From Myxococcales bacterium (GTDB lineage: Bacteria; Myxococcota_A; UBA9160; UBA4427), in contig JADFNE010000005.1 of assembly GCA_022563535.1 (NCBI GenBank), positions 46,397 through 110,396 of the forward strand: 64,000 nt of DNA. The letters are read 5' to 3'. The first letter of the stretch is position 1. Each line of letters opens with the position of its first letter. A program made the position numbers and the translations under genes. Shown piece after piece: positions 8,268 to 48,747 of this stretch. The notes under the pieces were generated by a model. It searched no databases and was not told the DNA's origin. It saw nothing but the letters and a program-made list of their open reading frames with translations.

Positions 8268-8615
8268 ATGTCCGGGGAATCCGGGGAAGACGTTCTTTCG
8301 CGCTTGATCGAGCTGATCGAAGAACGCAAACGCCTGCGTCCAGAGGGCAGCTACGTCGTCTCGCTGCTCGATGGTGGAGTGGAGGCCATCGCGGCGAAGG
8401 TTCGCGAAGAAGCCGACGAACTCATCGAGGCCGCGGCCGCTGACGACACCGCTCACACCGCACACGAGGCCGCGGATCTGCTGTTTCATGTCTGCGTATT
8501 GTTGAGCCATGCAGGTGTTTCCCTCGACGATGTGCTGGCTGTTCTCGAATCGCGATTCGGGATCGGCGGCTTCGAAGAAAAAGCCAGTCGAGACAAGAAC
8601 AGGGAGAACGGGTGA
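8268..8615 (+). CDS. hisE: Phosphoribosyl-ATP pyrophosphatase HisE (monofunctional)
   Basis: LSRLIELIEERKRLRPEGSYVVSLLDGG...KVREEADELIEAAA...EAADLLFHVCVLLSHAGVSLDDV. Confidence 0.9.
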   Translation: MSGESGEDVLSRLIELIEERKRLRPEGSYVVSLLDGGVEAIAAKVREEADELIEAAAADDTAHTAHEAADLLFHVCVLLSHAGVSLDDVLAVLESRFGIGGFEEKASRDKNRENG

Positions 8616-9478
8616 TGCTGGGAGGCGAACAGCTGCGCATCGCAGTGCCGTCGAAAGGGCGTCTGCGCGACAGTGCAATCGAAATATTGCGGGGTGCCGG
8701 GCTTCACTTCCGTCTCTCCGGACGGCGGCTGTTCTCGATCTGCACAGAGACCGAAACGCGCATCATATTTTCGAACGTACAGGACATCCCGGTGTTGGTG
8801 GCGGAGGGCGTGGTGGATCTCGGGATTACCGGAAGTGATCAGGTGCTCGAGAAGCGCGTCGAGGTGATCGAACACTGCAAGCTCGGCTTTGGCCAGTGTC
8901 GCGTTTCGGTGGCGGCACACAAAGACAGCGAGATTCGCAAAGCGTCCGATCTGAGTGGCAAGGTCGTGGGGTCGAGTTTCCCCAACCTCGCGGCCGACTA
9001 TTTTCGCGGCGAGGGGGCCGAAGACGTTCACATCCTCGCGATCGAGGGTGCGGTCGAAGTCATGGTGCTTCTGGGGCTCGTCGACGCCATTGTGGAGATC
9101 GTCGAGACCGGCAACAGCCTGCTCGAGAACGACCTCGTGGAACTCTGGCCGGTGCTCAGCGCCGAGGCTGTCTTGATTGGAAATCGCAATCCCCGGGAAC
9201 CGGAGGAGCGCGATCTTCTGCTGCGTCGGATCGACGGGGTGCTTGCCGCGCGTCGCTATTCCCTGCTGGAGTACAACTGCCCGGCGGACAAGCTCGAAGC
9301 AGCCACCCAGGTCACCCCCGGTTTCAGCTCGCCAACAGTGCAGAGCCTGGTGGACAAGGACTGGTACGCGGTGCGGGTGCTGGTCGAACGGGCACACGTC
9401 CACCGGATCCTGGACAAGCTTTCCGCCATCGGCTGCGTAGCCATCCTCGAATCGGATATCCGTCACACCCGGCTCTAG
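8615..9478 (+). CDS. hisG: ATP phosphoribosyltransferase, long form (paralog 1)
   Basis: LRIAVPSKGRLRDSAIEILRGAGL...DIPVLVAEGVVDLGITGSD...ETGNSL, plus a HisG_C-like tail. The ATG at 8615 overlaps the hisE stop (TGATG); an alternative GTG lies at 8612. Confidence 0.85.
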   Translation: MLGGEQLRIAVPSKGRLRDSAIEILRGAGLHFRLSGRRLFSICTETETRIIFSNVQDIPVLVAEGVVDLGITGSDQVLEKRVEVIEHCKLGFGQCRVSVAAHKDSEIRKASDLSGKVVGSSFPNLAADYFRGEGAEDVHILAIEGAVEVMVLLGLVDAIVEIVETGNSLLENDLVELWPVLSAEAVLIGNRNPREPEERDLLLRRIDGVLAARRYSLLEYNCPADKLEAATQVTPGFSSPTVQSLVDKDWYAVRVLVERAHVHRILDKLSAIGCVAILESDIRHTRL

Positions 9479-11298: not shown

Positions 11299-11883
11299 CT
11301 AGCGGGCTAGTAGGATTTTGCGCGTGCGATACAGGTTCGATTTGATTGCGTTCTCACTCTTGTTGAGCGTCTCGGCAATCTCGTGGATCGGGCGTTCCTG
11401 CAGATGGTGGAGTTCGAACAAGATCTGCTGTTCCCGGGTCAGGCGGTTGTCTACCAATCGCTGGATGCTGTCGACCCGCTGCTTGAATTCGATCGTCTGG
11501 ATCGCGTTCGGGGAAACGGCCGCCGATGAGCCCAACTCGTCCGCTGCGGCGTCGGCATGTTCTTCTTCGAGAGAAACCGTAGGGTGACGTTTCTTCTTGA
11601 AGCGGGAAGCGATCGTGCGCCGGGTGACTCCGAAGATCCAGGCCCCAAACGGTGCTTCCCTGCGATAGCTGTCGATCGAAGAAAACACGTTGATGAAGAC
11701 GTCCTGGACGGTCTCCTCGACGTCGGCGGTGTTGTTCAAGCGCCGGTTCACAAAATGATAGATTCGCTTGAAGTAGCGATGATAGAGGCTCGAGAACGCC
11801 TCGTGATCTCCGTCGAGTATCAGGCGTACCAGCGTTTCATCGCTCTGCGCAGCAACATCGTCAGCTATGTCAGGAGCCGCCAC
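11299..11883 (-). CDS. Sigma-70 family (ECF-type) RNA polymerase sigma factor
   Basis: Region 2: FSSLYHRYFKRIYHFVNRRLNNTADVEETVQDVFINVF...FGAWIFGVTRR. Region 4: LTREQQILFELHHLQERPIHEIAETLNKSENAIKSNLYRTRKIL. Confidence 0.85.
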   Translation of the reverse strand: MAAPDIADDVAAQSDETLVRLILDGDHEAFSSLYHRYFKRIYHFVNRRLNNTADVEETVQDVFINVFSSIDSYRREAPFGAWIFGVTRRTIASRFKKKRHPTVSLEEEHADAAADELGSSAAVSPNAIQTIEFKQRVDSIQRLVDNRLTREQQILFELHHLQERPIHEIAETLNKSENAIKSNLYRTRKILLAR

Positions 11884-12141: not shown

Positions 12142-12975
12142 TCAAGGGAGCATGGACTTCTTGGCCCGCTCGTACACGAGCTTGGCGGTTTCGCGCAGTC
12201 CCTTGGCTGCCAACGAGTTGGGATGGGCTTGGCCGATGGCTCGTCGGGCGACGATCGCGCGGTAGACATCGAGATCTTCGACGAGCAGGCCATAACTCGT
12301 CAATGTCAATCCGAGTCGCTGTTCTACGTTGCGCGCCAGTCTTGTGAAAGTCTCTTCGCCATCTCGCTGTCCGACGGCGCCGTGTACGGTGATCCCCACT
12401 TCGGCCTTCGGGTTCTCCTCGAGAACCAGCGCGGCGAGGGCATAGGCTCGGGCCATATCGTGTTGCTGCGGAGAGGTGAACAGCAGCATCCATTCGAGAA
12501 GTTCCGCGGGTTGTTCGGCCCCCCGCAGCCAGACTGGCGGAATTCGCACGAGCACGATTCCACCGTCGGCGCAACCGTCGGCGCGAGCGGCCGCGAGAGC
12601 GACGGCTGCGCTGTGGAGCGATGCGAGGTCTTCGGCAGGGCAGGTCTCCAGCCGGACCCGGGGCGACTCACAAATGGATCGCGAAAAGAGAGCTTCTGCG
12701 TTGGGCGTCTCCGGGGTCAGGAGGGTCGCGTCGCCACCGAGGGCCGCAATTTCTGAGGCCAGGCCGGCGACCAGGGACGCGCGGACGATCTCGTGGTCTG
12801 CAATGGGGACGGCTGCGAGAGGCAGGGAAGAAGACCCGAGTTCGTGGACTTCGGGTTCGCGGTCAAACGCGTCGGTCGTGATCCCGGGCGTGCGAGAGAC
12901 TCCCGCCCGCTGATCCTCGTCGGCAGCGATCTCGGGCATGAAGTAGTGAAGTACGTCGGCAAGATCCCTGGGCAC
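12142..12975 (-). CDS. MinD/FlhG/ParA-like protein lacking the Walker A P-loop (putative pseudo-ATPase)
   Basis: GTG start preceded by GGAGA. The MinD-like C-terminal two thirds read WMLLFTSPQQHDMARAYALAALV...GITVHGAVGQRDGEETFTRLARNVEQRLGLTLTSYGLLVEDLDVYRAIVARR..HPNSLAAKGL. The segment aligned to GKGGxGK[ST] reads AVPIADHEIVRAS. Confidence 0.6.
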   Translation of the reverse strand: MPRDLADVLHYFMPEIAADEDQRAGVSRTPGITTDAFDREPEVHELGSSSLPLAAVPIADHEIVRASLVAGLASEIAALGGDATLLTPETPNAEALFSRSICESPRVRLETCPAEDLASLHSAAVALAAARADGCADGGIVLVRIPPVWLRGAEQPAELLEWMLLFTSPQQHDMARAYALAALVLEENPKAEVGITVHGAVGQRDGEETFTRLARNVEQRLGLTLTSYGLLVEDLDVYRAIVARRAIGQAHPNSLAAKGLRETAKLVYERAKKSMLP

Positions 12976-13016
12976 TGGGTTCTCCGGCCTCCTCGACTTC
13001 TCTCAGTGCATGTAGC

Positions 13017-14102
13017 TCAGCGGACTATCAGGACTGAGTTTTCTTGGCCTGTAGACGTGGGGACCCAGTTGTCGTTGTTGGGATCGCGGAACCATTCCCC
13101 GTCGACTACGTAGCGATATTGATAAGTGCCGGGGGGTAAGTGGAGGATCTTGGTCCAGATCCGAGTCTCTCCTTCGGATTCGATCATCGATCGGACGCCT
13201 TTGTCTGGAATCCAACCGTTGAAATCGCCCGCGATGCGGACTTCTCCCGCTTGAGCGTCTCGGTAGCGCACCACGACCTCGCGGGTCGGCGGCGGAGCCT
13301 TCTCTTCGGCCGGAATGTCGTTGCGCAGCTTTGGAGGCGGGCTGGCCACCAACTCGATCGCGAGCGTCGAATAGTCTCGCGCGCCGTTGGCCGAGGGGGC
13401 GTAGAGAGAAATGGGGAGGCCGCTACGGGCCGCTTCCCGCAATTTCACGTTGAGCCGGATTACGCTGTCAAAACACAGATCTTTGAACAATTCGCGAACA
13501 TCGCCCAGGGTCTGGCGCGCGTAGCGCGTGCGTCCGTCGTACATGGTGGGCAGGATGCGAACGGACAGATCGTGTCCGATGCGGTCCGAGAGCAGGGCCA
13601 CGGTTTCGAGCAGCTTCTGGACACCGTCGACGGCGAAGAAACTCATTTCGAGTGGGATCAGGACTTCGCGCGATGCTCGCAGAGCGTTGAAGGTCAGCAG
13701 GCCAACGTTGGGCGGGCAGTCGATCAACACGTAGTCGTAGTGAGGTGGAAGATTTTCGATGGCTGCGGCGAGACGCTCGGTGCGCGAGTCATGTTTCTCG
13801 CTCGCGAGTTTTTGTTCTAATGCGGACAACACGATGCTCGAAGGCGCCAGGTCGAGCCGCTCTGAAGCGTTGACGATGATCTCTTCAAGCTGCCGCACTC
13901 CAGCGGGTTCGGCGAGGATTTCGTAGAGATTTTGATCGAGTTCGTCGGGATCGATCCCGAGTGCCAGAGTGGCGTGCGCTTGTGGATCCAGGTCGACAAT
14001 CAAGACGCGTGAGCCGTCGGCTGCTAGTGCACCGGCGAGATTGACCGTCGTGGTCGTCTTGCCGCATCCACCTTTTTGATTGACGATGGCGATGACTCGC
14101 AT
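13017..14102 (-). CDS. ParA/MinD-family ATPase fused to a C-terminal AMPK-beta-type glycogen-binding (CBM48-like) domain
   Basis: MRVIAIVNQKGGCGKTTTTVNLAGALAADGSRVLIVDLDPQAHAT; YVLIDCPPNVG. Pro-rich linker. C-terminus EVRIAGDFNGWIPDKG...LPPGTYQYRYVVDGEWFRDPNN...ENSVLIV. Start taken at ATG 14102; the ORF extends to 14195. Confidence 0.8.
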   Translation of the reverse strand: MRVIAIVNQKGGCGKTTTTVNLAGALAADGSRVLIVDLDPQAHATLALGIDPDELDQNLYEILAEPAGVRQLEEIIVNASERLDLAPSSIVLSALEQKLASEKHDSRTERLAAAIENLPPHYDYVLIDCPPNVGLLTFNALRASREVLIPLEMSFFAVDGVQKLLETVALLSDRIGHDLSVRILPTMYDGRTRYARQTLGDVRELFKDLCFDSVIRLNVKLREAARSGLPISLYAPSANGARDYSTLAIELVASPPPKLRNDIPAEEKAPPPTREVVVRYRDAQAGEVRIAGDFNGWIPDKGVRSMIESEGETRIWTKILHLPPGTYQYRYVVDGEWFRDPNNDNWVPTSTGQENSVLIVR

Positions 14103-14180
14103 GGCGTTTCCCCCCAGTGCGGCGAACATGATAATCGCCGGCTGAACCCACGCTTGAGAGACTCGTACCGTATGCAGTGG

Positions 14181-14218
14181 CCTCTCAAAATTCACCTTCC
14201 CCGAGCTGCTCGGGGAGG
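14181..14218 (-). terminator. GC-rich hairpin followed by a short T tract between merR-like gene and parA-like gene (terminator or attenuator)
   Basis: 10-bp stem cttccccgag / ctcggggagg with a 3-nt loop at 14196..14218. On the minus strand it is followed by GTGAATTTTGAG. Confidence 0.35.
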
Positions 14219-14407
14219 TACGACTGTTATGTCAGCTACATTGGCCAGCTCAACATGGTCAACGATTCGCTTCGGCGTCTAGTCGTCTGTCCGTCTATCC
14301 GTCAGATTGTTCTGTCTTTTTCCCCCGCTCTTGCTTTTGTTTCTGAGCTTTTGTCTGGTTTCTCAGTTGAGTTGATGAAGGTGCTAAAACTGCTTTAAAA
14401 GGGTGTA

Positions 14408-14935
14408 TTAGGCGGTTTGGGTCCAATCTGCGATTCGTCTCGTCGCCCGCGCTCGCTTCGCTGGGGCGACCTTTGTTTCGCTTCTCCAGCGGTCCACTTC
14501 ACGCTTGAAGTCTGCGACTTCAAAGATCCACTCCTGTCCGGAGACGGCTTCGAAGGCGGTGTTCTCCAGGAAGACGAGCACGACTTCTCCTGTCGCCACC
14601 AACACCAGATCGGATAGCGGACGGTCGATGTTGGGGAGGATCTCGCGCAGGGCGCGGATGCTCGAGCGAATTCGCTGAACCGAAACCCCGGCGTCGATCA
14701 GTCGCTTGGTCGCCTTCAGTGCGACCAGATCTTGAAATGTATATCGGTGGTGCCCGCCGCGTGTCTTGACGGAGGGGATGACCAGATCGGTCTGCGCCCA
14801 GTACTGCAATTGTCGACGCGAGATTCCCAAGATCTGTACGACTTCTTTGGTGCGAAACAGGTCGGGCGGGTTGCCCAACGACCTGTTCGATTCGGTACTT
14901 GGTTCCGCCGCGCTTTGCACTATGGAGTTGTCCAT
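14408..14935 (-). CDS. MerR-family HTH transcriptional regulator
   Basis: LFRTKEVVQILGISRRQLQYWAQTDLVIPSVKTRGGHHRYTFQDLVALKATKRLIDAGVSVQRIR. Confidence 0.8.
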   Translation of the reverse strand: MDNSIVQSAAEPSTESNRSLGNPPDLFRTKEVVQILGISRRQLQYWAQTDLVIPSVKTRGGHHRYTFQDLVALKATKRLIDAGVSVQRIRSSIRALREILPNIDRPLSDLVLVATGEVVLVFLENTAFEAVSGQEWIFEVADFKREVDRWRSETKVAPAKRARATRRIADWTQTA

Positions 14936-15424
14936 CTCGAATTCCCTCTCTCCGAATCTGTTTCCCGAACTCGCGCCTGGCCTCTTCAGTCGTCTACCGC
15001 CCGACTCGGCTGCTTACGGATCCGCGCTGTGAAGACGACCTCTGTACCAAGTGCCAGTTGCGTCTTGCTCGATACTCAAGCGTCTGCAATCGACCGTGCA
15101 TCGTGCTGCCGTGCAGGCGATTTCGCGACCAAGTTCGAGTTCTCGCACCGGAAGCGAAGGATTTCTGCCAGATAAATCCGAAACCAGTCTGAAGTCAACC
15201 CAATCAACCTGCGAAATGTACCGATTGGGAGAAATGAATGCAGCAATCTCGGGGTTTTCCTCCAATACCTGCCGGTTTGTTCACTGACTTGGACTTTCCC
15301 GTGTGCTTCCCGACCGTGCCTGCACATTGTACGCATATGAGCGCAAAACAGGGGTATAAAAGTGTTGAATATCGCCGAATTCGCGAGAGAGAAGTCAGGG
15401 CGCGTCTGCGGTAGCCTGAGTTCC

Positions 15425-16630
15425 ATGGCCGACACTGAAAAGCAGTCAATTTCCTCAGGGGGAGCGCGAGAGGAGCGCATCCTGGTCGAGGACGAGGGTA
15501 CACGGCGGCCGTTCATGCGCGGCATCATGGTTCACTCCCTGATGGCGCGCGGGATCAGTTTCGAGGATGCGTTCCGCACTGCAAACTTGGTGAAAGATCG
15601 GACCCAGGAGCGCGGCATCGTTCAGAGAGCCGAACTCGCCAAGCTCGTCGTCGAGATTTTGGGAAGCGATGCGCTGGCTGACCATCAGCCCCCGATTCCA
15701 ATTCCAGGTGGGATCGTGGTGGGTGGCCTGGAGGATGCGAATCCCTTTTCCAAAGGACTGCTGGCTCAGTCGCTGCTTGCCGCGTCGGTAGACCCGAGCG
15801 ATGCCTTCGATGTGGCGCGGGAGATCGAGTTCGACCTGTTGCGCCAGGGGCGCCGCCAGATCAGCCGCCAGGACCTCCGTCGCGCCGCCTACGAAAAAAT
15901 GCTCCGCCGCTTCGGTCCCCGAGCCGCATCGCGTTTTCTGATCTGGCGTCAGTTCCAGGAACCCGAAAAGCCCGTGATCATTCTGCTTGGGGGCAGCAGT
16001 GGGGTGGGGAAGACCTCCCTCGCACTCGAGGCGGCCCGACGTCTCGGCATTCGTCGCGTGCTCTCGACCGATTCGATTCGCCAGGTGATGCGCTTGATGC
16101 TCTCCTCGGAGTTGGTGCCGGCGATCCACGCTTCGTCGTTTGACGCCCATCTCTCCATCGCCACAGACGCCAATGCCGCGGGTCGCGAACAAGACGAAGT
16201 CGTTCAAGGTTTCATGGCCCAGGCCACGGTGGTCTCCGTCGGTGTACGGGGGATGATCGAGCGCGCGATCGACGAAAATACGAGCATGATTCTCGACGGC
16301 GTGTCCCTGGTCCCGGGCCTGATCGATCTCGCGTCCTATGCCGCCGACGCCCACATCATCTACCTGGTCGTCGCCCGCCTGGACGAAGACAGTTTTCGCA
16401 ACCATTTTATCGCTCGAGGCAAGCGGCAGTTGCACCGCAACGCCACCCGCTACGTTGAGAACCTCGAGGGCATCCTGAAAATTCAGGAACATTTTCTCGA
16501 ACTGGCGGATCGCTACGACATCCCGATCGTGGACAACGCCACCATCGACGGGTCAGTGATGCTCGTCATTCGGCACGTCGTAGAAACGCTGCGCAAGTCC
16601 GGCAATTACGATGAGGTCGATTTGCTCTGA
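15425..16630 (+). CDS. 2-phosphoglycerate kinase-like protein (ATP-cone-like N-terminus + P-loop kinase)
   Basis: RRPFMRGIMVHSLMARGISFEDAFRTANLVKDRT. P-loop ILLGGSSGVGKTSLALEAARRLGIRRVLSTDSIRQVMR. ATG at 15425 preferred; the ORF opens at 15362. Confidence 0.6.
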   Translation: MADTEKQSISSGGAREERILVEDEGTRRPFMRGIMVHSLMARGISFEDAFRTANLVKDRTQERGIVQRAELAKLVVEILGSDALADHQPPIPIPGGIVVGGLEDANPFSKGLLAQSLLAASVDPSDAFDVAREIEFDLLRQGRRQISRQDLRRAAYEKMLRRFGPRAASRFLIWRQFQEPEKPVIILLGGSSGVGKTSLALEAARRLGIRRVLSTDSIRQVMRLMLSSELVPAIHASSFDAHLSIATDANAAGREQDEVVQGFMAQATVVSVGVRGMIERAIDENTSMILDGVSLVPGLIDLASYAADAHIIYLVVARLDEDSFRNHFIARGKRQLHRNATRYVENLEGILKIQEHFLELADRYDIPIVDNATIDGSVMLVIRHVVETLRKSGNYDEVDLL

Positions 16631-28130: not shown

Positions 28131-28517
28131 ATGGAAATACTCAACCAACTCGACTTCGCCAAAAACGATGGCCTCGTCACCGCAATCGCCCAGGATCACT
28201 CCAGCGGAGAGATCCTCATGGTGGCCTTCATGAACGAAGAATCGTTCCGACTCACCGTCGAGACGGGCTCCGTGGTGTATTGGAGCCGCAGCCGCAAGAA
28301 GCTTTGGCGCAAGGGTGAGGAGAGCGGCAACACGCAGAAGCTCAAGTCGCTCTATATTGATTGCGACGGAGATGCGGTGTTGATGCAGGTCGAGCAGATC
28401 GGCGGAGCGGCCTGCCACACCGGCCGTCGCAATTGTTTTTTCCGCAAGCTCGACGGGGACACGTTCATCGACGTAGGGGTCAAGGTTTTCGATCCCGAAA
28501 AGGTCTACAAGAAATGA
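28131..28517 (+). CDS. hisI: Phosphoribosyl-AMP cyclohydrolase HisI (monofunctional)
   Basis: GLVTAIAQDHSSGEILMVAFMNEESFRLTVETGSVVYWSRSRKKLWRKGEESGNTQKL..IDCDGDAVLMQVEQIGGAACHTGRRNCFF. Confidence 0.9.
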   Translation: MEILNQLDFAKNDGLVTAIAQDHSSGEILMVAFMNEESFRLTVETGSVVYWSRSRKKLWRKGEESGNTQKLKSLYIDCDGDAVLMQVEQIGGAACHTGRRNCFFRKLDGDTFIDVGVKVFDPEKVYKK

Positions 28518-29416
28518 GCGACAAGACTTTTGCCGATCGCAGCCAGAAGAAGCTTCGTATCGGATTGCCCAAGGGCAGTCTCGAAGAGACCACCTTCAAG
28601 CTGCTTGCCCTGGCCGGGTTTTCGGTTCGCGTTGCGAGCCGCTCGTACTATCCCGAAATCGACGATCCCGAGATCGAGTGCATTCTGATTCGCCCCCAGG
28701 AGATGGCGCGCTATGTCGAACAGGGGGTGATGGATTGTGCGATTACCGGCGCCGACTGGGTGATCGAATCGGGTGCCGATGTCGAAGAAATCGCCGACCT
28801 CGAGGCACCCTGGCCCAACTACGTTCCGGTGCGCTGGATCCTGGCGGTAAAAGAGGGCTCGAAGTTCGAGAAGCCCGAGGACCTGCAGGGAAAACGGATT
28901 GCCTCAGAAGTGGTCGGAATGACCAAGCGGTACCTGGCCGCGAAGAACATCGAAGCCAAGGTCGAATTTTCCTGGGGCGCGACTGAAGTCAAGCCGCCGA
29001 TTCTCGCCGACGCGATCGTGGACGTCACCGAGACGGGATCGAGTCTGCGTGCGAACCGTCTCAAGGTGATCGATACGATTTTTGAAAGCACTCCGCGGCT
29101 GATCGCCTGCAAACAGTCCCTCGAAAACGAGTGGGTGCGGGGCAAGCTGGAACGCCTCACGCTGTTGCTCAACGGCGCAATTGCAGCCGCCTCTCGGGTC
29201 GGTCTCGCGATGAATGTTCCCCGGGACAAACTCGATCAGGTGTTGGCCCTGCTGCCCGCGCTCAATACTCCAACGGTGTCGACTTTGGCCGATCAAAACT
29301 GGGTCGACGTGAGCACCGTGGTCGAAGAACACCTGGTTCGCGAACTTCTGCCAAGGCTCGTCGAGGCGGGAGCCCGCGGCATTATCGAGTCCCCCCTGAA
29401 CAAGATCGTCGGCTGA
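28514..29416 (+). CDS. hisG: ATP phosphoribosyltransferase, long form (paralog 2)
   Basis: The ATG at 28514 overlaps the hisI stop (ATGA). LRIGLPKGSLEETTFKLLALAGF...DCAITGADWV...VTETGSSLRANRL, plus a HisG_C-like tail. Confidence 0.85.
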   Translation: MSDKTFADRSQKKLRIGLPKGSLEETTFKLLALAGFSVRVASRSYYPEIDDPEIECILIRPQEMARYVEQGVMDCAITGADWVIESGADVEEIADLEAPWPNYVPVRWILAVKEGSKFEKPEDLQGKRIASEVVGMTKRYLAAKNIEAKVEFSWGATEVKPPILADAIVDVTETGSSLRANRLKVIDTIFESTPRLIACKQSLENEWVRGKLERLTLLLNGAIAAASRVGLAMNVPRDKLDQVLALLPALNTPTVSTLADQNWVDVSTVVEEHLVRELLPRLVEAGARGIIESPLNKIVG

Positions 29417-33642: not shown

Positions 33643-33759
33643 TCAACCGCTATTTGATTTTCGACTCTTAGACAGGGAGTTGCACTCTCGAAGCAGGCTG
33701 ATTCCGTAGAGAACGAGCGGCAAAATGGTGACGGTATAGGCTGCGATCAGGTAGTTCAC
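33643..33759 (-). CDS. ccmD: Heme exporter protein CcmD (38 aa, below ORF-track cutoff)
   Basis: The GTG at 33759 overlaps the ccmC stop (GTGA). My hand translation gives VNYLIAAYTVTILPLVLYGISLLRECNSLSKSRKSNSG: a single TM helix with the size and position typical of CcmD. Confidence 0.6.
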   Translation of the reverse strand: MNYLIAAYTVTILPLVLYGISLLRECNSLSKSRKSNSG

Positions 33760-34508
33760 GACGCCTCCTCACCTGCGGCCAGGCCCTCGGCTTTGTCCCA
33801 TGCGGCCCGGGTGCGCAGGCTTTCGACCTCCCAGCGAAGCAACACCAGATAAGCAAAGACGAAGAACAGCGCGAGGTTGCCCATCAGGAAGGGCAGACCC
33901 ATGCCACTGCCGAGACTCCCTTGCTCGAGGTTTTCGGGGTGGATGGAGCGGTTGTCGAAAATTTCAATGATGTAGTAATTCAGCGGGATCAACACGACTC
34001 CCACGATCCCGTAGACCGCCGCAAAGCGCGCAGTTCTGGTGCCGCTCCCGCTAAAACTCCGCAGAAGCATGTAGGCCAGATAGATGAACCAGAGGAGCAG
34101 CGTTACGGTAAGCCTGGGATCCCAGGACCACCATTTACCCCACGTGCCCTTGGCCCAGATGGGTCCGGTCACGAGCATCAGGGTGCAAAAAAATACCCCG
34201 ACCTCGGTGGCCGCGATCGCCATGCGGTCAAAGTCTTCTCGATCCGTCCACAGGTAGAGCGCCCCACCGATCGCTGTGATGATGAAGCCCAGATAGGCGC
34301 CATAGGCCAGGGGGGGGTGGACGTAGAGAATCTTTTGGATGATGCCCTGCACGCTGTCGATCGGGGCCTGAACAACGGTCCATGCGTAAACCGCGAGCAG
34401 CAAAGCCAGCGGGCCGCCGAGCCAACCTCGAAGTCGAGCCACACCCAGCTCGAGGTTGGACCGCTGCGTCGTGGACTGCTCCTGGCTCGTCGGATCGTTC
34501 ATGAACAA
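33756..34508 (-). CDS. ccmC: Heme exporter protein CcmC
   Basis: WWD motif WAKGTWGKWWSWDPRLT. Multi-TM protein. Confidence 0.9.
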   Translation of the reverse strand: MFMNDPTSQEQSTTQRSNLELGVARLRGWLGGPLALLLAVYAWTVVQAPIDSVQGIIQKILYVHPPLAYGAYLGFIITAIGGALYLWTDREDFDRMAIAATEVGVFFCTLMLVTGPIWAKGTWGKWWSWDPRLTVTLLLWFIYLAYMLLRSFSGSGTRTARFAAVYGIVGVVLIPLNYYIIEIFDNRSIHPENLEQGSLGSGMGLPFLMGNLALFFVFAYLVLLRWEVESLRTRAAWDKAEGLAAGEEAS

Positions 34509-34569
34509 CCTCTGTTTTTCCTGACTTGCTTCGTATGCGCCGATCGCACGGGTTGACGAACTTTGGTTT

Positions 34570-35235
34570 TCACTCGTCGAGGATGTATTCGAAACCCAGA
34601 AACGAGACGACCAGATATATACCGTCGATTACCAGCAGCAGCTGAACGACTTCGAATGAAACGTTGCCCTCGACGATCAGCGAGTGGGTCCCCGCCACGA
34701 CACCGGCCAGCACCGGGAACAATGCCGGAAGTAGCAGGATCGGCAACAGCACCTCGCGCAGCCGAGTTCGCACACTCATCGCGGAAAACAGCGTGCCCGC
34801 GGTGCAGATTCCAAAGCTCCCCAGGGCGACAATGCCCGCCAGTTCGGGGGCGATTCCGAGCAAGTTGAGATCGAAGGCCAGGGCGAATGCAAAGGCCGTC
34901 GCGATCTGCACGATTCCGATCAGGCAGAAGTTTGCGAGCGCCTTGCCGACAAAGATCCAGCCTCGCTCGCCTGGAGCCAATGCGAGCCCGGACAGGGCGT
35001 CGTTTTCCAGCTCGAGGGCAAAGGATCGGTTGAGTCCGATGTTCGCCGCAAAGACATAGGCCACCCACAGGAGCCCGGCCGCGTTTTCCTCGACACCGGC
35101 CCGGGTGCCACTTGGCAGGGCGAAGTGAAAGACCACGACCACGAGCAAGGAGAAGAGCAACATCGCGATCACTCGGTCGCGAGAACGCCATTCGGTGAGC
35201 AGGTCCTTCCAGAGGATGGCGAGCGCAACGTTCAT
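34570..35235 (-). CDS. ccmB: Heme exporter protein CcmB
   Basis: MNVALAILWKDLLTEWRSRDRVIAMLLFSLLVVVVFHFAL; six-TM pattern. ATGA overlap with ccmA. Confidence 0.85.
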   Translation of the reverse strand: MNVALAILWKDLLTEWRSRDRVIAMLLFSLLVVVVFHFALPSGTRAGVEENAAGLLWVAYVFAANIGLNRSFALELENDALSGLALAPGERGWIFVGKALANFCLIGIVQIATAFAFALAFDLNLLGIAPELAGIVALGSFGICTAGTLFSAMSVRTRLREVLLPILLLPALFPVLAGVVAGTHSLIVEGNVSFEVVQLLLVIDGIYLVVSFLGFEYILDE

Positions 35236-35960
35236 GCACCGATTCCTCCCGCTTGTGCTGGACCGAGCACACTGGCTTCGAGATTCTCCGGGGTGATCTC
35301 CGCGCCGCTGGCCCGGAAGGCGACTTTGCCGCGAATCAGGGTGTCGACCCGGTCAGCCAGCTCTGCCGCCCGGCGCAGATCATGGGTGATCAGCACGAGT
35401 GCCCGGGACTGACTGCGCAGGGTATCGAGTCGAGCCGCCAGGCGATCGGCCGCTCGCCGGTCGAGCCCCGTGAAGGGTTCGTCCAGCAGGATGATCTGCG
35501 GATCGTGAATACACGCCCGGGCAATCGCGAGTCGCTGCGCCATCCCGCGCGAAAATGTTCCGACCCGAACCTCGGCCACTTCGAAGAGCCCCTCGGCTTC
35601 GAGCAGGGCATCCGCGCGCTCCCGCGCCCCGGTGACTCCATAGAGTTTCGCCGCAAACAGCAGATTCTCTCGGGCGCTCAATTCCGAATAGAGCAGCGTC
35701 GCGTGCCCGACATAACCGATGACCGACCGCGCCTTGCGGGGCTCGACTTCATTCCCCGTGCTTTCGACGAGTTTGACTTCGCCGCCGCTGGGCCGGGACA
35801 GCCCGGCGAGTATGCGCAGCAGCGTGGTCTTGCCCGCGCCATTGGGTCCGAGAATGGCGTGAATGGTTCCGCGACCCACTTCGAGATCGACTCCGCGCAA
35901 AGCGGCCAGGGCACCGAAGCGCTTGACCAATCCTCGGGCGCGTAGCGCCGCTTCGCTCAC
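35232..35960 (-). CDS. ccmA: Heme ABC exporter ATP-binding protein CcmA
   Basis: GLVKRFGALAALRGVDLEVGRGTIHAILGPNGAGKTTLL; FSRGMAQRLAIARA; ILLDEPFTGLD. GTG at 35960 overlaps the upstream stop (GTGA). The ORF track extends to 36068. Confidence 0.85.
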   Translation of the reverse strand: MSEAALRARGLVKRFGALAALRGVDLEVGRGTIHAILGPNGAGKTTLLRILAGLSRPSGGEVKLVESTGNEVEPRKARSVIGYVGHATLLYSELSARENLLFAAKLYGVTGARERADALLEAEGLFEVAEVRVGTFSRGMAQRLAIARACIHDPQIILLDEPFTGLDRRAADRLAARLDTLRSQSRALVLITHDLRRAAELADRVDTLIRGKVAFRASGAEITPENLEASVLGPAQAGGIGA

Positions 35961-37912
35961 CCGTTTGCTTTCACGGCAGCTTCCGCCCCGCCGTCGGTGT
36001 CTCGAGAAGCCCCGCACTTCGGGCAGAACTTCCAGCCGATGTTCAGCGTGCTGCCACAGTGTTGGCAACTCTCGCTGTGCGCGGGTTCGGCCGGATCTCG
36101 CGTACTGCTCGATTGGGGAGCCGTCGTCCCGGCAGCCGGGGCCGATTGCTTCGCGTCGCGTTCCTGTTGCAGCAACTCGAGCGCGCGCGCGCGCAGTTCG
36201 CTGCGCATGGTCTGGTATGAGGCCTCTTCGATCTTCGAGGTTTCGAAGTCGTGTTCCAGGTCGCGAATCGCTCCGTAGATCAGGTCGCGTTCAGTGCGAA
36301 TCTGCGCTCGTTCATACTGGTCGGCACGTGATCGTCTACCCTGGACCAGGGGCGACACGATGAACCAGACGCCGAGAGCGGCCAGGGCGCTGGTGGCCAA
36401 CAGGTTGGTATTGCGACCCCCGGAACCGCGATTGATCAATTCCATGTCGAGCGACACGACTTCACCCTCATCGATCGAGAACGCTTCCCGGTGTAAGTAG
36501 ATCCGCGTGCCCTGGCGAAACGGGCGAAGTCGATGAAGGCGTTCAGTCTTGACGACGATTCCGGTATCCGCGATCAGCACGTTCAATACTTTGACGGCGC
36601 CCGGCAGACGTATGTCGATCCGTGGCTTGCCGTCGACGACCGGCAGACGGTAGGAAAACCCCAATCGCGCTTCACCTGGAGACAACGGGCCGATCAATCC
36701 TAGACCGCCGGGAATGGGCAGCAAACCCAGGTTTTGCGCTTCTTCGCTGTAGCCGCGCAATTCGGCGTTGGGGGGCAACGCAAAGCTGAGCAACGGAGCT
36801 TCTATGCTGCCGGTGAGGTGAGCGCCGGGTGCCACCTCGAGATGAAGTTCGAAATTGACCTGCAGGAAGGTGTCGTCGGCGTCCAACCAGTAGTCGGCGC
36901 GGGGAAATGAAATCGCGCTTCGGTCGTTTGACATGTTCGGCAGCGATACGGCCACTGCGAAGCTGCTGCCCGCCGAGACCGGTCCGAGGGAGAGCGCGTG
37001 AAAGGACCGTTCGCCCAGGGTTACATCCGCACCGGTCGCAACCCCTGGGATCGTTAGCGTCGGGCCGTCGGGCGGGTACAAGATACTCGCGCGGCGACTC
37101 CCCGAATCGAGTTTCCAGCGGAGCTTCATCTCCTCCCCCGCATCTCGCACGATGGGGACCAGATAGCGAAAGCGCAGCTCGAGTCCGTCGGCGTAGATCG
37201 GGCCCCAGAAGATCAACTCGTCAGCGTGCAACTCGTAGCCGTCGGCGACTCCGCTGAGGCTGGTGTCGATTTGTTCCGCGCCCGCCGGAAGTGTGACGCG
37301 AAACGGCGGTTGCTTGCCGCTGCGGTTTTCGGGCGCGACAAAGATCACCTCGTCGCCAGAATTTTCGAGTTGGTGAACTTCTTCGATTCCGAGACTCGCA
37401 CCGATCCACTCGACTCGCAGGGACGATTCTCCGACGGAGACTCGCGAGGAATCATCGCTCGGTTCGTCGACGTCGATCACCAGGACAATTTCGTTCTGGC
37501 CGGGGTCGAACGCGACCCGCTTGCCGTAGGGAATGCCGCCATAGTTGGCGCCCACCAGGTAGGTGATCCCCGATGCACTCGATAGATCGGCAAAGCTGAA
37601 CGTCCCAGAACGATCCGTCAGGGTGGTGCGTATCCCCGGACTGCCGTCTGCGGCGAGGGAGTAGAGCACGATGGTAGAACCCTCGGTCTTCTCGTTGCCG
37701 CCGGGATGCAGCAACTGGCCGTAGATCACCGCGGTTCCGGGCGGGACGTCGGAGACCCCGCTCGCATTGCCGAGAGACTCATGCGGAGCCTGGGCCGCAC
37801 TGGTACCGACCCAAATGATCGGAACAAGGAGCAGCACCAGCGGCGACACCAGCACCAACAACGAGGCTCTGCAGTGACGAACGGACCGGTTGCCCGTGGC
37901 TGGGTTTCGCAA
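35957..37912 (-). CDS. Bitopic protein embedded in the ccm operon: signal peptide, CarboxypepD_reg-like domain, large periplasmic region, TM helix, cytoplasmic coiled coil + zinc ribbon
   Basis: Signal peptide ASLLVLVSPLVLLLVPIIWVGTSAAQA. GTAVIYGQLLHPGG...TLTDRSGTFSFADL. TM helix LLATSALAALGVWFIVSPLV. IRDLEHDFETSKIEEASYQTMRSELRARALELL (CcmI-N-terminal-like helix). CQHCGSTLNIGWKFCPKCGA. TTG start 2 nt after the ccmF stop. Confidence 0.75.
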   Translation of the reverse strand: MRNPATGNRSVRHCRASLLVLVSPLVLLLVPIIWVGTSAAQAPHESLGNASGVSDVPPGTAVIYGQLLHPGGNEKTEGSTIVLYSLAADGSPGIRTTLTDRSGTFSFADLSSASGITYLVGANYGGIPYGKRVAFDPGQNEIVLVIDVDEPSDDSSRVSVGESSLRVEWIGASLGIEEVHQLENSGDEVIFVAPENRSGKQPPFRVTLPAGAEQIDTSLSGVADGYELHADELIFWGPIYADGLELRFRYLVPIVRDAGEEMKLRWKLDSGSRRASILYPPDGPTLTIPGVATGADVTLGERSFHALSLGPVSAGSSFAVAVSLPNMSNDRSAISFPRADYWLDADDTFLQVNFELHLEVAPGAHLTGSIEAPLLSFALPPNAELRGYSEEAQNLGLLPIPGGLGLIGPLSPGEARLGFSYRLPVVDGKPRIDIRLPGAVKVLNVLIADTGIVVKTERLHRLRPFRQGTRIYLHREAFSIDEGEVVSLDMELINRGSGGRNTNLLATSALAALGVWFIVSPLVQGRRSRADQYERAQIRTERDLIYGAIRDLEHDFETSKIEEASYQTMRSELRARALELLQQERDAKQSAPAAGTTAPQSSSTRDPAEPAHSESCQHCGSTLNIGWKFCPKCGASRDTDGGAEAAVKANG

Positions 37913-37914
37913 AC

Positions 37915-39885
37915 TCAGGGCTGTTTCCCCGGACGGATGATCTCAGGATGGGGCCACATAATGGCGATCGATCCCGCGATCGCAATCGCGGCCCCGATCC
38001 ACAACCAGTTGACCAGTGGGTTGCGATGAATCTTGAAGGTCGCCGAACCGTCGGGTTCGACTTCGTTGAGCACCAGATAAAGATCTTCGAGCCAGGTCGA
38101 ATAGATGGCGGGAAGCGAGGAGGGCTGCTGTTCGAGCCAGTACAGCCGCTTCTCCGGCAGCATCGTCGCCACGGGTTTGCCCCGGTGATAGAGCGCGACC
38201 CGGGCGGTGGCCCCTCCGTAGTTCTGTTCCAGGATGGCGTTGGCCGTGAGGTAGCGAAGTTCGAACTGGTCGAGTTTGACCGACTCCCCGGGTTTGAGGT
38301 TTTCGAGGCGCTCCTGGTTGAACGCCGCGCCCGAGACCGCAATGAACATCAACACGATGCCCAGATGCACGATGTAGCCGCCGTAGCGTCGCTGGTTTCG
38401 CTGCAACAAGGTAAAGAACGCCCGTACGGGGTTCTCTCCCCGCTTTCGCATGCGAGCGCCGATCGCGCGGTGGTACTCCTGGGTGATTGTCGCGATGACA
38501 AACGCGGAGAGGGTCCAACAACCGATCGCCCAGACCGTCGCAGTGCTCCAGAACGTCGCCGCCAGGACCACGCCGACCACCACGCCGAACACCGCCGGGC
38601 CGACGAACTGGCGGCGGACACTGGCGACGGTGGCCCGTCGCCAGGCAATCAAGGGACCCACTCCCGTCAGGAAGAGCAGGAACAGGGTGAGCCAGCCTTC
38701 GAGAGAATTGAAGAACGCCGGACCGACGGTGGTCCGGTTGCCGCTCAGGGCTTCGGAAATCACCGGCAGCAGCGTGCCCCAGAATACGACGACGAGAATG
38801 GCCATGAACACCCAATTGTTCATCATGAAGCCCGCTTCGCGGGAGACCATCGACTCGAGTTTGTGTTGGCTCTTGAGTTGGGGTAGACGGTACAAGAGCA
38901 TGCCGAAATAGAGCGTCGCCGTGACCACGACGAAGGAGAAGAAGATTGGCGTGAACAGACCGTTGTTCGTGAAGGCGTGAACCGACTGCACGATCCCACT
39001 TCGCGTCAGGAAGGTGCCGAACACGCAAAGCAGGTAGGTGATTCCGATCAACACCAGGTTCCAGGTCTTCAGCATGTCGCGCTTTTCCTGGATCATCACC
39101 GAATGCAGATAGGCGGTGCCGGCGAGCCAGGGCATCAAGGCTGCGTTCTCGACCGGATCCCAGCCCCAGTACCCGCCCCAGCCGAGGATCTCGTAGGCCC
39201 AACGACCCCCGAGAACCAGGCCACCGCCCAGGCATGTCCAGGCGAACAGGGTCCAACGGCGCGTCGTCTGAAACCATTGGGTGCCGAGTTCCCCGGTCAC
39301 GAGATTTGCAAACGCGAAGGCGTAGGGGACGATGAAACCGGTGAAGCCCGCGTAGAGGACCACCGGGTGAATCGACATCAGCGGATGCTGGAGCAGCGGG
39401 TTCAGGCCATTGCCGTCCGAGCGCACATCGAGGGGGCCTACGCGATCAAAGGGCAGGGAGACGAAGCTGCATAGGCTCAAAAAGAAAATCAGATTGACCA
39501 GGATGCACATCACCACCCAGGGCATCAGGGTTCGATTGTCGTGCCGGTTCAAGAACACCGCCGCCGCGCCGTAGAGTGCGACCATCCAACCCCAGAGCAG
39601 CAGCGATCCGGCTTGCCCACCCCAGAGCGCCGCCAAACGAGAATTCAGTGACATCGCCCGGGCGGAGTGTTGGGCGACGTAGGCGAGGCTGAAATCGTTG
39701 GTCGCCAGGGCGTAGAACAACGCCAGCATGGCAACGGTGATTGCGCCGAACACCACGTAGAGCGATCGCTCGGCTACCTGGGTCCACTCATCGCGCTTGT
39801 TCAAACCGGCGGCCACACTGACGATGCAGCCGAGAATCGCTATGAGCCAGCCGAAGGTCAGCGCTTGTTGGCCGATGTCTGCCAT
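37915..39885 (-). CDS. ccmF: Cytochrome c-type biogenesis heme lyase CcmF
   Basis: WGGYWGWDPVENAALMPWL (WWD). Polytopic, 656 aa. Confidence 0.95.
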   Translation of the reverse strand: MADIGQQALTFGWLIAILGCIVSVAAGLNKRDEWTQVAERSLYVVFGAITVAMLALFYALATNDFSLAYVAQHSARAMSLNSRLAALWGGQAGSLLLWGWMVALYGAAAVFLNRHDNRTLMPWVVMCILVNLIFFLSLCSFVSLPFDRVGPLDVRSDGNGLNPLLQHPLMSIHPVVLYAGFTGFIVPYAFAFANLVTGELGTQWFQTTRRWTLFAWTCLGGGLVLGGRWAYEILGWGGYWGWDPVENAALMPWLAGTAYLHSVMIQEKRDMLKTWNLVLIGITYLLCVFGTFLTRSGIVQSVHAFTNNGLFTPIFFSFVVVTATLYFGMLLYRLPQLKSQHKLESMVSREAGFMMNNWVFMAILVVVFWGTLLPVISEALSGNRTTVGPAFFNSLEGWLTLFLLFLTGVGPLIAWRRATVASVRRQFVGPAVFGVVVGVVLAATFWSTATVWAIGCWTLSAFVIATITQEYHRAIGARMRKRGENPVRAFFTLLQRNQRRYGGYIVHLGIVLMFIAVSGAAFNQERLENLKPGESVKLDQFELRYLTANAILEQNYGGATARVALYHRGKPVATMLPEKRLYWLEQQPSSLPAIYSTWLEDLYLVLNEVEPDGSATFKIHRNPLVNWLWIGAAIAIAGSIAIMWPHPEIIRPGKQP

Positions 39886-40023
39886 GTGGGGCTCCCAGAT
39901 CCTGCTTCGTTGAGGCGACTCGAGTGTGGCTGGCTGGTTTGCAATCTGCGCCCGCGCCGTGTCGGAGACAATGTGTGACCGCGGGACGTGGACGCGGGTG
40001 ATCGAGGAGGCGAATGGCTGAGG

Positions 40024-40494
40024 CTAGAGGCTCGTCGCATCCTTTTGCGGCATTTCCGCGTTGGCCTCGAACTTCGAGGGACATTTGGCGAGAACGTTGT
40101 CGGCCATGAACACGCGATCGGTTCCGTTGATCGCGAGGGTTCCCTCGACCACGACGTCGGCACCGTCCTGAAAAAGATCAGGTGTCTCGAGCCCCTGAAA
40201 CAGCACAGCGAGGGTCGCCACTGAGGGGCCGCTCTTGTGGGGTGGGTCGTTCTGGACCTCGAACGTCACCTGCTTGGCCTCGAGGTCGCGGTCGATGCTG
40301 CCCGGGGCCACATAGCCGTGCACCCGCAGCGCTTTGCCCACTGAATCCTCGGCAAGCGCACTGCTGGCGAGAAACTCATCCAGGGTCTGGAAGTACTGGA
40401 AAGTCGGCGAGCCCTCGAGGTTCGAATACCCGTACCAGCCCAGGAGACTGAAAATGATCGTTGCGCCGACTGCGAGTTGAACGCCCTTGGACAT
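40024..40494 (-). CDS. ccmE: Heme chaperone CcmE, variant with Cys instead of the heme-binding His
   Basis: The ATG at 40494 gives MSKGVQLAVGATIIFSLLGWYGY (TM anchor). OB-fold part RVHGYVAPGSIDRD...VTFEV...VVVEGTL. C-terminus NVLAKCPSKFEA where E. coli has LAKHDENY. I checked the minus-strand codons by hand. Confidence 0.85.
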   Translation of the reverse strand: MSKGVQLAVGATIIFSLLGWYGYSNLEGSPTFQYFQTLDEFLASSALAEDSVGKALRVHGYVAPGSIDRDLEAKQVTFEVQNDPPHKSGPSVATLAVLFQGLETPDLFQDGADVVVEGTLAINGTDRVFMADNVLAKCPSKFEANAEMPQKDATSL

Positions 40495-40818
40495 GTTTTC
40501 CTGTGCTCCGACTGCTTCCGACGAAGGCGATCCGGTTCTTGACGCCGAGCCACCTGGCGCGTGTTGGGGGCCGTGGAGCCTATCATCGGGGTATTCTGGT
40601 GTCAAAGGGGAGAATAAAATTTTCCGTTCAATTTCAGTATGTTGCGGCGGCATTCGCCTGGGTTCCTCGGGCGGGGCTGCATTCGAAGCCCGGGCGTCTG
40701 GAGAGGGTATGCCGGGATTCGCTGACGCGGTCTCGAACACCGGAATCGATCGTGCGCTCGCACAACTCGCTAGTGTGCTCCCCGACCTGGAGTCGCGGAT
40801 CGGCTCGCAGTTGGAGGG

Positions 40819-48724: not shown

Positions 48725-48747
48725 ACACCGACGTTCTGTTTGGACAA

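Follow-up and report, generated by a model that had tools for sequence, protein, structure and literature searches.

A ParA-type ATPase carrying a glycogen-binding-type domain, with a P-loop-less MinD-fold partner and a MerR-like protein: a candidate module for glycogen positioning in uncultured bacteria

Introduction

Could a ParA-type ATPase serve a storage polysaccharide? ParA/MinD ATPases are the general bacterial means of placing large bodies in the cytoplasm: chromosomes, plasmids, carboxysomes, chemoreceptor arrays, flagella and the divisome. No carbon store is more widespread among bacteria than glycogen, yet we know of no machinery dedicated to its placement or inheritance. The question is raised by three co-directional genes on the minus strand of a 64-kb stretch of Myxococcales DNA (contig JADFNE010000005.1; GC content 0.61), here called the window. 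The first gene of this module encodes a MerR-type protein of 175 amino acids (aa; 14408..14935), the second a ParA-type ATPase with a C-terminal domain of the carbohydrate-binding CBM48 class (ParA::CBM; 13017..14102, 361 aa from an ATG) and the third a 277-aa protein, read from a GTG, that has a MinD-like fold but no P-loop (the partner; 12142..12975). An original prediction, made from the letters of the window, had taken these genes for a candidate positioning system for glycogen granules.

The comparative analysis described here suggests that some bacteria may actively tether or position glycogen stores. The reading that we tentatively favour, with a probability a little under even, is that the three-gene module tethers alpha-glucan (glycogen) particles to the nucleoid or distributes them on it. 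Tethering or positioning is favoured because a Soj-like ATPase, a variable tether, an intact CBM sugar site and a ParB-like partner peptide are all conserved.

Results

The three genes lie in the predicted order and orientation, and their layout is kept in dozens of independent loci, which is far beyond chance. The ParA reading frame stays open upstream to a GTG at 14195, which would give 392 aa if used; 361 aa is taken as the right product because homologues measure 359-367 aa and GGGGGGA stands ahead of the ATG at 14102. From the stop codon of parA::CBM to the start of the partner gene there are 41 nucleotides (nt), and the start is preceded by GGAGA, the ribosome-binding site that had been proposed for it.

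Analysis of ParA::CBM with Pfam identified an ATPase domain of the ParA/Soj type (about residues 1-255; 13338..14102, minus strand), with AAA_31 matching residues 1-231 (expectation value (E) 4.7e-53; 180 bits against a cut-off of 27) and CbiA scoring 9.5e-22 (77.7 bits against 25.4). The nearest solved structures are ParA 8ray (1.8e-49), HpSoj 6iub (1.6e-44) and TtSoj (4.9e-38), with about 45% identity to solved ParA/Soj structures, whereas the McdA structure 6noo is far more distant (1.8e-14). The deviant Walker A motif NQKGGCGKTTT was read directly at 14049..14081 (minus strand) with its signature lysine, K10, intact as originally claimed, and NQKGG.GKT occurs in 119 of the 120 closest homologues. 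An alignment of 16 fusion proteins from Myxococcota, Gammaproteobacteria, Acidobacteriota and Nitrospirae shows K10, G11, G12, K15, T16, D37, D39 and D128 to be invariant; the three aspartates are those of Walker A' and Walker B, and the Walker B strand reads YVLIDCPP. The one hint of matrix (nucleoid or membrane) binding is a basic residue, K220, which aligns with the second Arg of PRNVRLSE in 8ray/Soj, and most members have a basic residue at what we take to be the position of the DNA-binding R189 of Soj. A C-terminal amphipathic helix is absent, the C-terminus being the CBM. The NCBIfam partition equivalogs for ParA and RepA (NF041546 and TIGR03453) fail their cut-offs, scoring 101 against 180 bits and 113 against 348 bits. 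ParA::CBM carries no signal peptide and opens directly with the P-loop strand, which indicates a cytoplasmic protein.

The C-terminal domain of ParA::CBM (residues 274-361; 13020..13283, minus strand) is a glycogen-binding domain of the AMPK-beta type, which bears out the CBM48/AMPK pattern first noticed by eye. Pfam AMPK1_CBM (PF16561) matches residues 277-359 with 3.5e-11 (43.6 bits against a gathering cut-off of 26.8), and the enzyme-type CBM_48 (PF02922) remains below threshold at 17.5 against 22.4 bits. When the C-terminal 97 aa were compared with solved structures, the glycogen-binding domain (GBD) of AMPK beta1 came first (1z0n, 2.3e-9), followed by beta2, SEX4 and LSF1; weaker matches comprised pullulanase/neopullulanase, Sip2 and two chance-level unrelated chains. 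The residues that we take to be the cyclodextrin contacts of AMPK beta1, W100, K126, W133, L146 and N150, correspond to W297, R330, W337, T351 and N355 in the window protein (numbering checked on the 1z0n alignment, in which chain position 33 is W100). Across phyla these positions read W, R/K, W, T/I/Y/F and N, with both Trp and the Asn invariant or nearly so and the position of L146 hydrophobic in most lineages. Invariant in the 16 fusions are A291-G-D-F-N-G-W297, P299, D300, Y327, Y329, W337, D340, P341, N343, G352 and S356, and N355 is nearly invariant. The string AGDFNGWIPD does not change from Myxococcota to Gammaproteobacteria; GDFNGW is found in 116 of the 120 closest homologues and Y.Y[RK], DG.W..DP and G..NS[VIL] in all 120, and a PF16561-type domain was also detected in the Nitrospirota and gammaproteobacterial homologues. 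With the residues of both conserved, the ATPase machinery and the sugar site are each under purifying selection, and the conservation of the sugar contacts across phyla favours a real carbohydrate ligand.

The fusion itself is genuine, as the original prediction had assumed. An origin by assembly or frameshift artefact was ruled out by thousands of homologues, of which the best 120 all carry PF16561, and by full-length matches to the fusion in five phylum-level groups, in many related and unrelated genomes. Apparent ParA-CBM-partner triple fusions at three of the loci surveyed below (L022, L026 and L040) are out-of-frame readings through GC-rich DNA.

Between the two domains lies the predicted Pro-rich flexible linker, SPPPKLRNDIPAEEKAPPPT (residues 254-273, 20 aa; 13284..13343, minus strand). 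Its length varies from 20 to about 370 aa across lineages while the domains at both ends are conserved, as expected of a tether. Four Nitrospirota proteins at first matched over residues 1-253 only; the same C-terminal CBM sits beyond a linker of 284-373 aa that is about 33% Asp/Glu and contains up to eight tandem ADEDDEELLAA repeats (for example L053:8001-10049, L054:3579-5465 and L056:8001-10157). Such an extremely acidic disordered tether is quite unlike the 20-aa Pro-rich linker of the window protein.

In contrast to ParA::CBM, the 277-aa partner gave no match to Pfam or NCBIfam, and neither collection reveals a ParB/Srx CTPase domain or a helix-turn-helix (HTH) in it. A word-indexed search returned 61 homologues, all unnamed. 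A profile search of 1.84 billion cluster representatives returned 97 at E<1e-30 and 270 at E<1e-10, which puts the family at about 97 and 270 clusters at 50% identity, respectively; the weakest of the latter grade into genuine P-loop MinD/FlhG proteins. The AlphaFold2 (AF2) model has a mean predicted local distance difference test (pLDDT) score of 86.9, exceeding 90 over most of the folded domain, and shows a short N-terminal helix (residues 5-9), disorder from 13 to 46 (pLDDT <50) and a seven-stranded alpha/beta core (50-277). A Foldseek search of the PDB with this model placed FlhG 4rz2 first (E 4.6e-13), followed by FleN, MinD (1hyq), NifH and Soj, the FlhG/FleN/MinD matches ranging from 4.6e-13 to 1e-9. 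The MinD/FlhG/FleN-fold domain thus modelled occupies residues 50-277 (12145..12828, minus strand), behind a variable linker, predicted to be disordered, that is gappy and unconserved in the alignment (residues 16-49; 12829..12930, minus strand).

Sequence comparison agrees with the fold. By sequence, the profile of the partner family extends to genuine FlhG/MinD proteins with a P-loop, and hhalign against five P-loop FlhG-like proteins gave a probability of 99.3% and E 2.8e-20 over 217 columns. In that alignment PIADHEIVRAS sits on SGKGGVGKT, so that the segment at the Walker A loop indeed lacks GKGGxGK[ST] as claimed from the window, and VLVRIPP sits on the Walker B strand with R144 at the Asp position. 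The degenerate Walker A position, AVPIADHEIVRAS (residues 55-67), maps to 12775..12813 and the degenerate Walker B position, IVLVRIPP with Arg in place of the catalytic Asp, to 12535..12558, both on the minus strand; P146, P147 and W149 vary little or not at all in the family. No P-loop was found in any full-length (at least 225 aa) representative checked among the top 150. The alignment stops at the last helix of the fold, and the last 34 or so columns of the template, where the membrane-targeting helix of FlhG/MinD lies, are unmatched. Thus, of the MinD-like paralog without a P-loop that had been proposed, the fold and the P-loop loss stand, but not a recent origin from the ParA gene next door: on these profile and model comparisons, the protein is a derivative of the MinD/FlhG branch. 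Four representatives of the family, P0297, P0324, P0325 and P0328, lack the P-loop yet give weak, sub-threshold CbiA/ParA Pfam matches, and two of the four carry a ParB-like LG(R/K)GL N-terminus. In evolutionary terms they seem to stand between true MinD/FlhG ATPases and the degenerate partners.

The most conserved part of the partner family is not the fold but the first 15 residues, a near-invariant peptide MPRDLADVLHYFMPE (12931..12975, minus strand). The N-terminus MPRDLADVLHYF hardly varies: P2, R3, L5, D7, V8, L9, H10 and P14 are at least 90% conserved, and nearly all full-length representatives begin M[PA]R[DE]L.DVLH[YH][FL], with R.RLEKISHHFLS instead in the Nitrospirota and gammaproteobacterial partners. 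Two distant members have the N-termini RRLGRGLSDVSNLFLSE and KRLGKGLEEVSHLFLSS, containing RRLGRGLSDV and KRLGKGLEEV, where the window protein has R3-D-L-A-D-V-L followed by the disordered linker. These two N-termini closely resemble LG(R/K)GL..LL, the peptide through which ParB contacts and activates ParA. The order of parts in the partner, a conserved peptide with an Arg at the N-terminus, then disorder, then the fold, is that of ParA activators (ParB, McdB, MinE-like). Because its near-invariant N-terminus grades into the ParB-like LG(R/K)GL peptide, the partner is probably an activator of the ParA::CBM ATPase rather than a passive pseudo-enzyme.

A scan of loci, limited to one genome per species, identified 58 that encode a relative of this ParA, all in metagenome-assembled genomes (MAGs). 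About 42 of the 58 are of Myxococcota type (labelled 'Deltaproteobacteria', with some mislabelled Spirochaetaceae); the remainder belong to Nitrospirota/Leptospirillia, Acidobacteriota, Gammaproteobacteria (including Thiohalobacteraceae) and Phycisphaerales. Profile searches combined with an iterative search restricted to the loci placed a P-loop-less gene directly downstream of parA::CBM in 51 of the 58, in three major phyla, and merR stands directly upstream in Myxococcota, Nitrospirota and one gammaproteobacterial locus. Elsewhere in Gammaproteobacteria, several loci pair ParA::CBM with the partner and lack MerR. The conservation of the trio, or of the pair, that had been expected of a genuine module is therefore found across phyla, and the spread over Myxococcota, Nitrospirota and Gammaproteobacteria would make the module either ancient or horizontally mobile. 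Database entries call its products only 'AAA family ATPase', 'chromosome partitioning protein', 'hypothetical protein' and 'MerR family transcriptional regulator'.

Other neighbours are more restricted. Genes for an extracytoplasmic function (ECF) sigma factor, an esterase, CysZ and an ATP-cone/P-loop kinase-like protein are syntenic within the Myxococcota clade only, and reveal little of what the module does. A fourth conserved gene, X, follows the partner in Nitrospirota and in most partner-carrying gammaproteobacterial loci (L048:9972-10565, L049:9682-10191 and L056:10959-11555, and also L051 and L053-L055). Protein X has 170-200 aa and no Pfam match and ends in a conserved L[ST]..E..FF..L; neither the window nor any of the Myxococcota loci yielded a detectable counterpart. 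In two Nitrospirae MAGs, a patatin-like phospholipase gene (GGGARGAYNAG; L043:7177-8082 and L044:9224-10129) replaces the partner after ParA::CBM.

The first gene of the module encodes a MerR-family protein, as predicted (Pfam MerR_1 6.3e-15; 55.5 bits against 21.6), but not one that is merely a local regulator. Conservation extends over its full length in Myxococcota, Nitrospirota and one gammaproteobacterial locus (phmmer 1e-43 to 1e-49), with about 50 invariant positions in an alignment of 35 sequences; the protein is a core component. The AF2 model (pLDDT 65) is good over the HTH and weak over the C-terminal half (pLDDT 43-58); it comprises a winged HTH, a 17-residue helix, three beta-strands and a terminal helix, and shows neither the long antiparallel coiled-coil helix nor the C-terminal effector site of classical MerR/CueR/SoxR proteins. 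Structural matches to the HTH include MtaN, NmlR, RacA, GlnR and CueR. The best PDB match, and the best over the whole length of the protein, is CvkR (Alr3614; 7xn2, E 7.6e-7, template modelling score 0.55/0.63, 150 columns), the repressor of a type V-K CRISPR-associated transposon (CAST). CvkR represents a structurally discrete MerR subfamily, in which dimerization involves a beta-sheet (PMC9938897). Both proteins feature a winged HTH, a helix, three beta-strands and a C-terminal helix, and both lack a long coiled coil (PMC9938897); they differ in that identity is only 20% and in that the MerR-like gene has no CAST or transposon context. An atypical, CvkR-like architecture is therefore proposed for the MerR-like protein on the strength of this model.

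The spacers flanking merR had been described as long and AT-richer, and measure 305 and 426 nt with a GC content of 0.54-0.56 against 0.61 for the window. No Rfam family or tRNA was found in them or elsewhere in the window, and a scan with consensus models gave no promoter and no convincing terminator; a conserved block resembling a sigma70 promoter, upstream of merR, emerged only from comparison of the loci. This block (15169..15220, minus strand) comprises an A/T-rich inverted-repeat region, GGGTTGACT and a -10-like hexamer. In the window the -35-like TTGACT (15193..15198) is separated from TATCTG (15169..15174) by 18 nt, and the position of the block implies a leader of about 225 nt before merR. 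The consensus is [AG]ACA(A/T)(A/T)(A/T)T-N8-9-TTTT-GG[GC]TTGACT, 17-18 nt and a -10-like hexamer. The pattern is present in 30 of 40 loci and the full block in about 26, since L002, L028, L031 and L042 lack the upstream A/T-rich repeat. Of the 16 copies of the repeat ACAAAA-N8-TTTTG[GT] in 935 kb of loci, 15 lie upstream of merR; three of the four Nitrospirota loci are among these 15, and the fourth has a copy of the core with one mismatch. The closest relatives of the window have CATTT-N8-AAATG at the position of the repeat, a symmetric change in both half-sites; the copy in the window itself is degenerate. An operator at 15262..15280 was considered and ruled out, as alignment with relatives puts the homologous block at 15190..15220. 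Centromere-like repeat arrays around merR were likewise rejected, the spacers holding only short chance-level repeats and one palindrome. One promoter with one operator-like repeat upstream of merR suggests autoregulation of the operon by the MerR-like protein rather than a centromere.

The palindrome lies in the merR-parA spacer, where a hairpin had been seen at 14196..14218. It reads TCCCCGAGC-A-GCTCGGGGA (14198..14216), is perfect over 9+9 nt and stands 96-114 nt upstream of the parA start. No T-run follows it and its sequence is not conserved, although in about half of the related loci another GC-rich palindrome stands 33-115 nt ahead of parA. This element may form a structured leader, or may serve in processing or attenuation.

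The conserved MerR-like protein could also reflect a different function of the whole module, a glycogen-sensing switch, which we consider unlikely. The CBM would report the glycogen load as AMPK beta does, and sequestration of ParA::CBM on glycogen would alter its interaction with the FleN/FlhG-like partner and with the MerR-type protein, and hence transcription, by analogy with Soj acting on DnaA/Spo0A or FleN antagonising FleQ. The MerR-like protein equals ParA in conservation and accompanies it across phyla, the closest structural relatives of the partner, FlhG and FleN, are regulators of transcription or assembly, and the regulatory DNA offers a single operator-like inverted repeat with a promoter instead of a centromere-like array. 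The ECF sigma gene that follows the module in Myxococcota would also fit a switch, but this gene, the esterase and the other such neighbours are absent in Nitrospirota and Gammaproteobacteria, and the gammaproteobacterial loci without MerR retain ParA::CBM and the partner. No regulated target is evident, and a complete ATPase machinery with a ParB-like peptide is typical of spatial ParA systems.

The rest of the window is housekeeping chromosome and not plasmid, as judged from a scan of the large open reading frames (ORFs). The ECF sigma gene at 11299..11883 follows the module. Divergent from the module, 15362..16630 (plus strand) encodes a 422-aa protein with weak ATP-cone and P-loop kinase/zeta-toxin matches and an architecture resembling that of 2-phosphoglycerate kinase; the gene is syntenic in nearly all Myxococcota loci and not in other phyla. 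A VTC-domain gene (polyphosphate-polymerase-like, 3e-37) adjoins a DUF4956 gene at 47852..49413 (plus strand); the two may be related to polyphosphate, in a genome that also carries the putative glycogen module. Two hisG genes, both full-length and of the long form with HisG_C, lie within 20 kb (8612..9478 and 28361..29416, plus strand). A ccmE/ccmF cytochrome c maturation cluster (33756..41361) adjoins cofE (F420-0:gamma-glutamyl ligase) and cofC-like genes (41435..43224, minus strand), which indicate cofactor F420 biosynthesis in a Myxococcota-like genome. A gene for a tyrosine recombinase of the phage-integrase family (54538..55428, minus strand) stands amid small unannotated ORFs and may mark the edge of an integrated element. 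A defence-system origin of the module was rejected: PADLOC gave weak partial HTH and P-loop matches only, and none for the partner or protein X.

Discussion

A mechanism is proposed for the favoured function, the tethering or distribution of glycogen particles on the nucleoid. ATP-bound ParA::CBM would dimerize and bind the nucleoid non-specifically, like Soj, while the C-terminal CBM on its flexible linker would hold glycogen particles, many weak CBM-glucan contacts tethering each particle to the ParA-coated nucleoid. The N-terminal peptide of the partner (R3-x-L-x-D-V-L-H-Y-F, a relative of the ParB LG(R/K)GL) would stimulate ATP hydrolysis and release ParA, and the resulting local depletion of ParA could space or partition the cargo as in other ParA systems. 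The degenerate MinD-fold domain would then be a dimerization or docking surface and not an enzyme, and the CvkR-like MerR protein would autoregulate the operon from the conserved promoter block.

Several observations weigh against this mechanism. It is unorthodox in that the cargo domain is permanently fixed on the ATPase, whereas canonically the cargo carries the activator; this makes a diffusion ratchet hard to picture. Two Nitrospirae, two Acidobacteriota and some gammaproteobacterial ParA::CBM loci have no partner nearby. All carriers are uncultured MAGs, and for this reason glycogen granules are undocumented in them. In the window protein the position of AMPK L146 is a Thr, and CBM48-like E-set domains can also mediate protein contacts. 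Linkage to glycogen genes was not seen: no glgA/B/C/P/X or malQ is present in the 64-kb window, including 30 further large ORFs that were scanned, and none is evident in the few non-Myxococcota flanks read by eye. Across the 58 loci this check was limited to neighbours of the window genes; the shared Myxococcota flanks match these neighbours, none of which is a glg gene. Genomic context thus lends no support to glycogen as the ligand.

The missing glg linkage would be explained if the CBM48-like E-set domain were a protein-binding module, recognizing the partner, protein X or another assembly, with glycogen irrelevant. The sub-threshold PF02922 score points the same way, and the L[ST]..E..FF..L peptide of protein X could be the ligand of a beta-sandwich. 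We assign such a non-carbohydrate cargo a low probability, as conservation sits exactly on the sugar contacts of AMPK beta1 (both Trp, the Asn, Lys/Arg and the mostly hydrophobic L146 position), the closest solved homologues (AMPK beta, SEX4 and LSF1) target glycogen or starch, and the domain is unchanged in the Myxococcota loci, where protein X is absent. That ParA::CBM is an ordinary chromosome or plasmid partition ParA (Soj) with an extra domain, and the partner and MerR unrelated neighbours, is very improbable despite its similarity to chromosomal ParA/Soj structures and the JGI name 'chromosome partitioning protein' for homologues, since no ParB/parS adjoins parA::CBM, the module contains no ParB-domain protein, the ParA and RepA equivalogs score far below their cut-offs, the neighbours are conserved alongside it in three phyla and the window is not a plasmid.

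Glycogen tethering or positioning would add a storage polysaccharide to the actively positioned cargos and would represent a new design, in which the cargo receptor is fused to the ATPase and the activator is a pseudo-ATPase. It is possible, though on balance doubtful, that this is the first ParA/MinD-type system for a carbohydrate storage polymer, with a built-in CBM48-type receptor and a new class of activator driving the cycle. Such a system would offer a simple experimental entry, because the CBM, the 15-residue peptide and the ATPase each lend themselves to assays in vitro and in E. coli. Even if the ligand is not glycogen, the P-loop-less MinD-fold family would be an undescribed, cross-phylum class of ParA partner. 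The original statement that no ParA-type system for glycogen granules has been described agrees with our search, which found nothing linking ParA/MinD ATPases to glycogen, CBM48 or AMPK1_CBM in the searchable literature, most subscription journals lying beyond it. Within ParA/MinD positioning systems, the ParA-CBM cargo-binding fusion and the partner class are, by sequence, the apparently new elements.

Among known systems, ParA/Soj-ParB shares the deviant Walker A with signature lysine, Walker A' and Walker B at about 45% identity, and a partner with an Arg-containing N-terminal peptide, LG(R/K)GL in distant members, and a flexible linker. The module differs in lacking a ParB (HTH/ParB-N CTPase) and a parS array, in carrying the CBM on the ATPase and in having a degenerate MinD/FlhG domain as the folded part of the partner. 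McdA-McdB, PomXYZ, ParC-ParP and PpfA-TlpT likewise use an orphan ParA-family ATPase for a non-DNA cytoplasmic cargo, as is proposed here. McdA-McdB-type systems share the adjacent small partner gene and the disordered N-terminal region, and McdA 6noo is a detectable homologue; in contrast to the module, a separate partner recognizes the cargo, and there is neither a CBM nor a P-loop-less MinD-fold partner. The signature lysine of ParA::CBM is presumably absent from type-1 McdA.

FlhG, FleN and MinD share their fold with the partner, together with profile similarity over 217 columns, and FlhG also has a short conserved peptide before the fold. The partner has lost Walker A and the Walker B Asp and has no C-terminal membrane-targeting extension, and its N-terminal motif is PRDLADVLHYF where FlhG has DQAxxLR.

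On the side of the glucan, AMPK beta, SEX4/LSF1 and plant PTST also carry a non-catalytic CBM48, the GBD of AMPK beta being the closest to the domain of ParA::CBM, in which the sugar contacts are conserved. Together with coiled-coil partners, PTST2-type proteins control starch granule number and morphology in plastids (PMC11772324; 10.64898/2026.04.21.719982). The shared logic is that a CBM48 brings an activity other than that of a glycoside hydrolase to a glucan particle. In the module described here that fused activity is a ParA ATPase, in bacteria, where the glucan would be glycogen.

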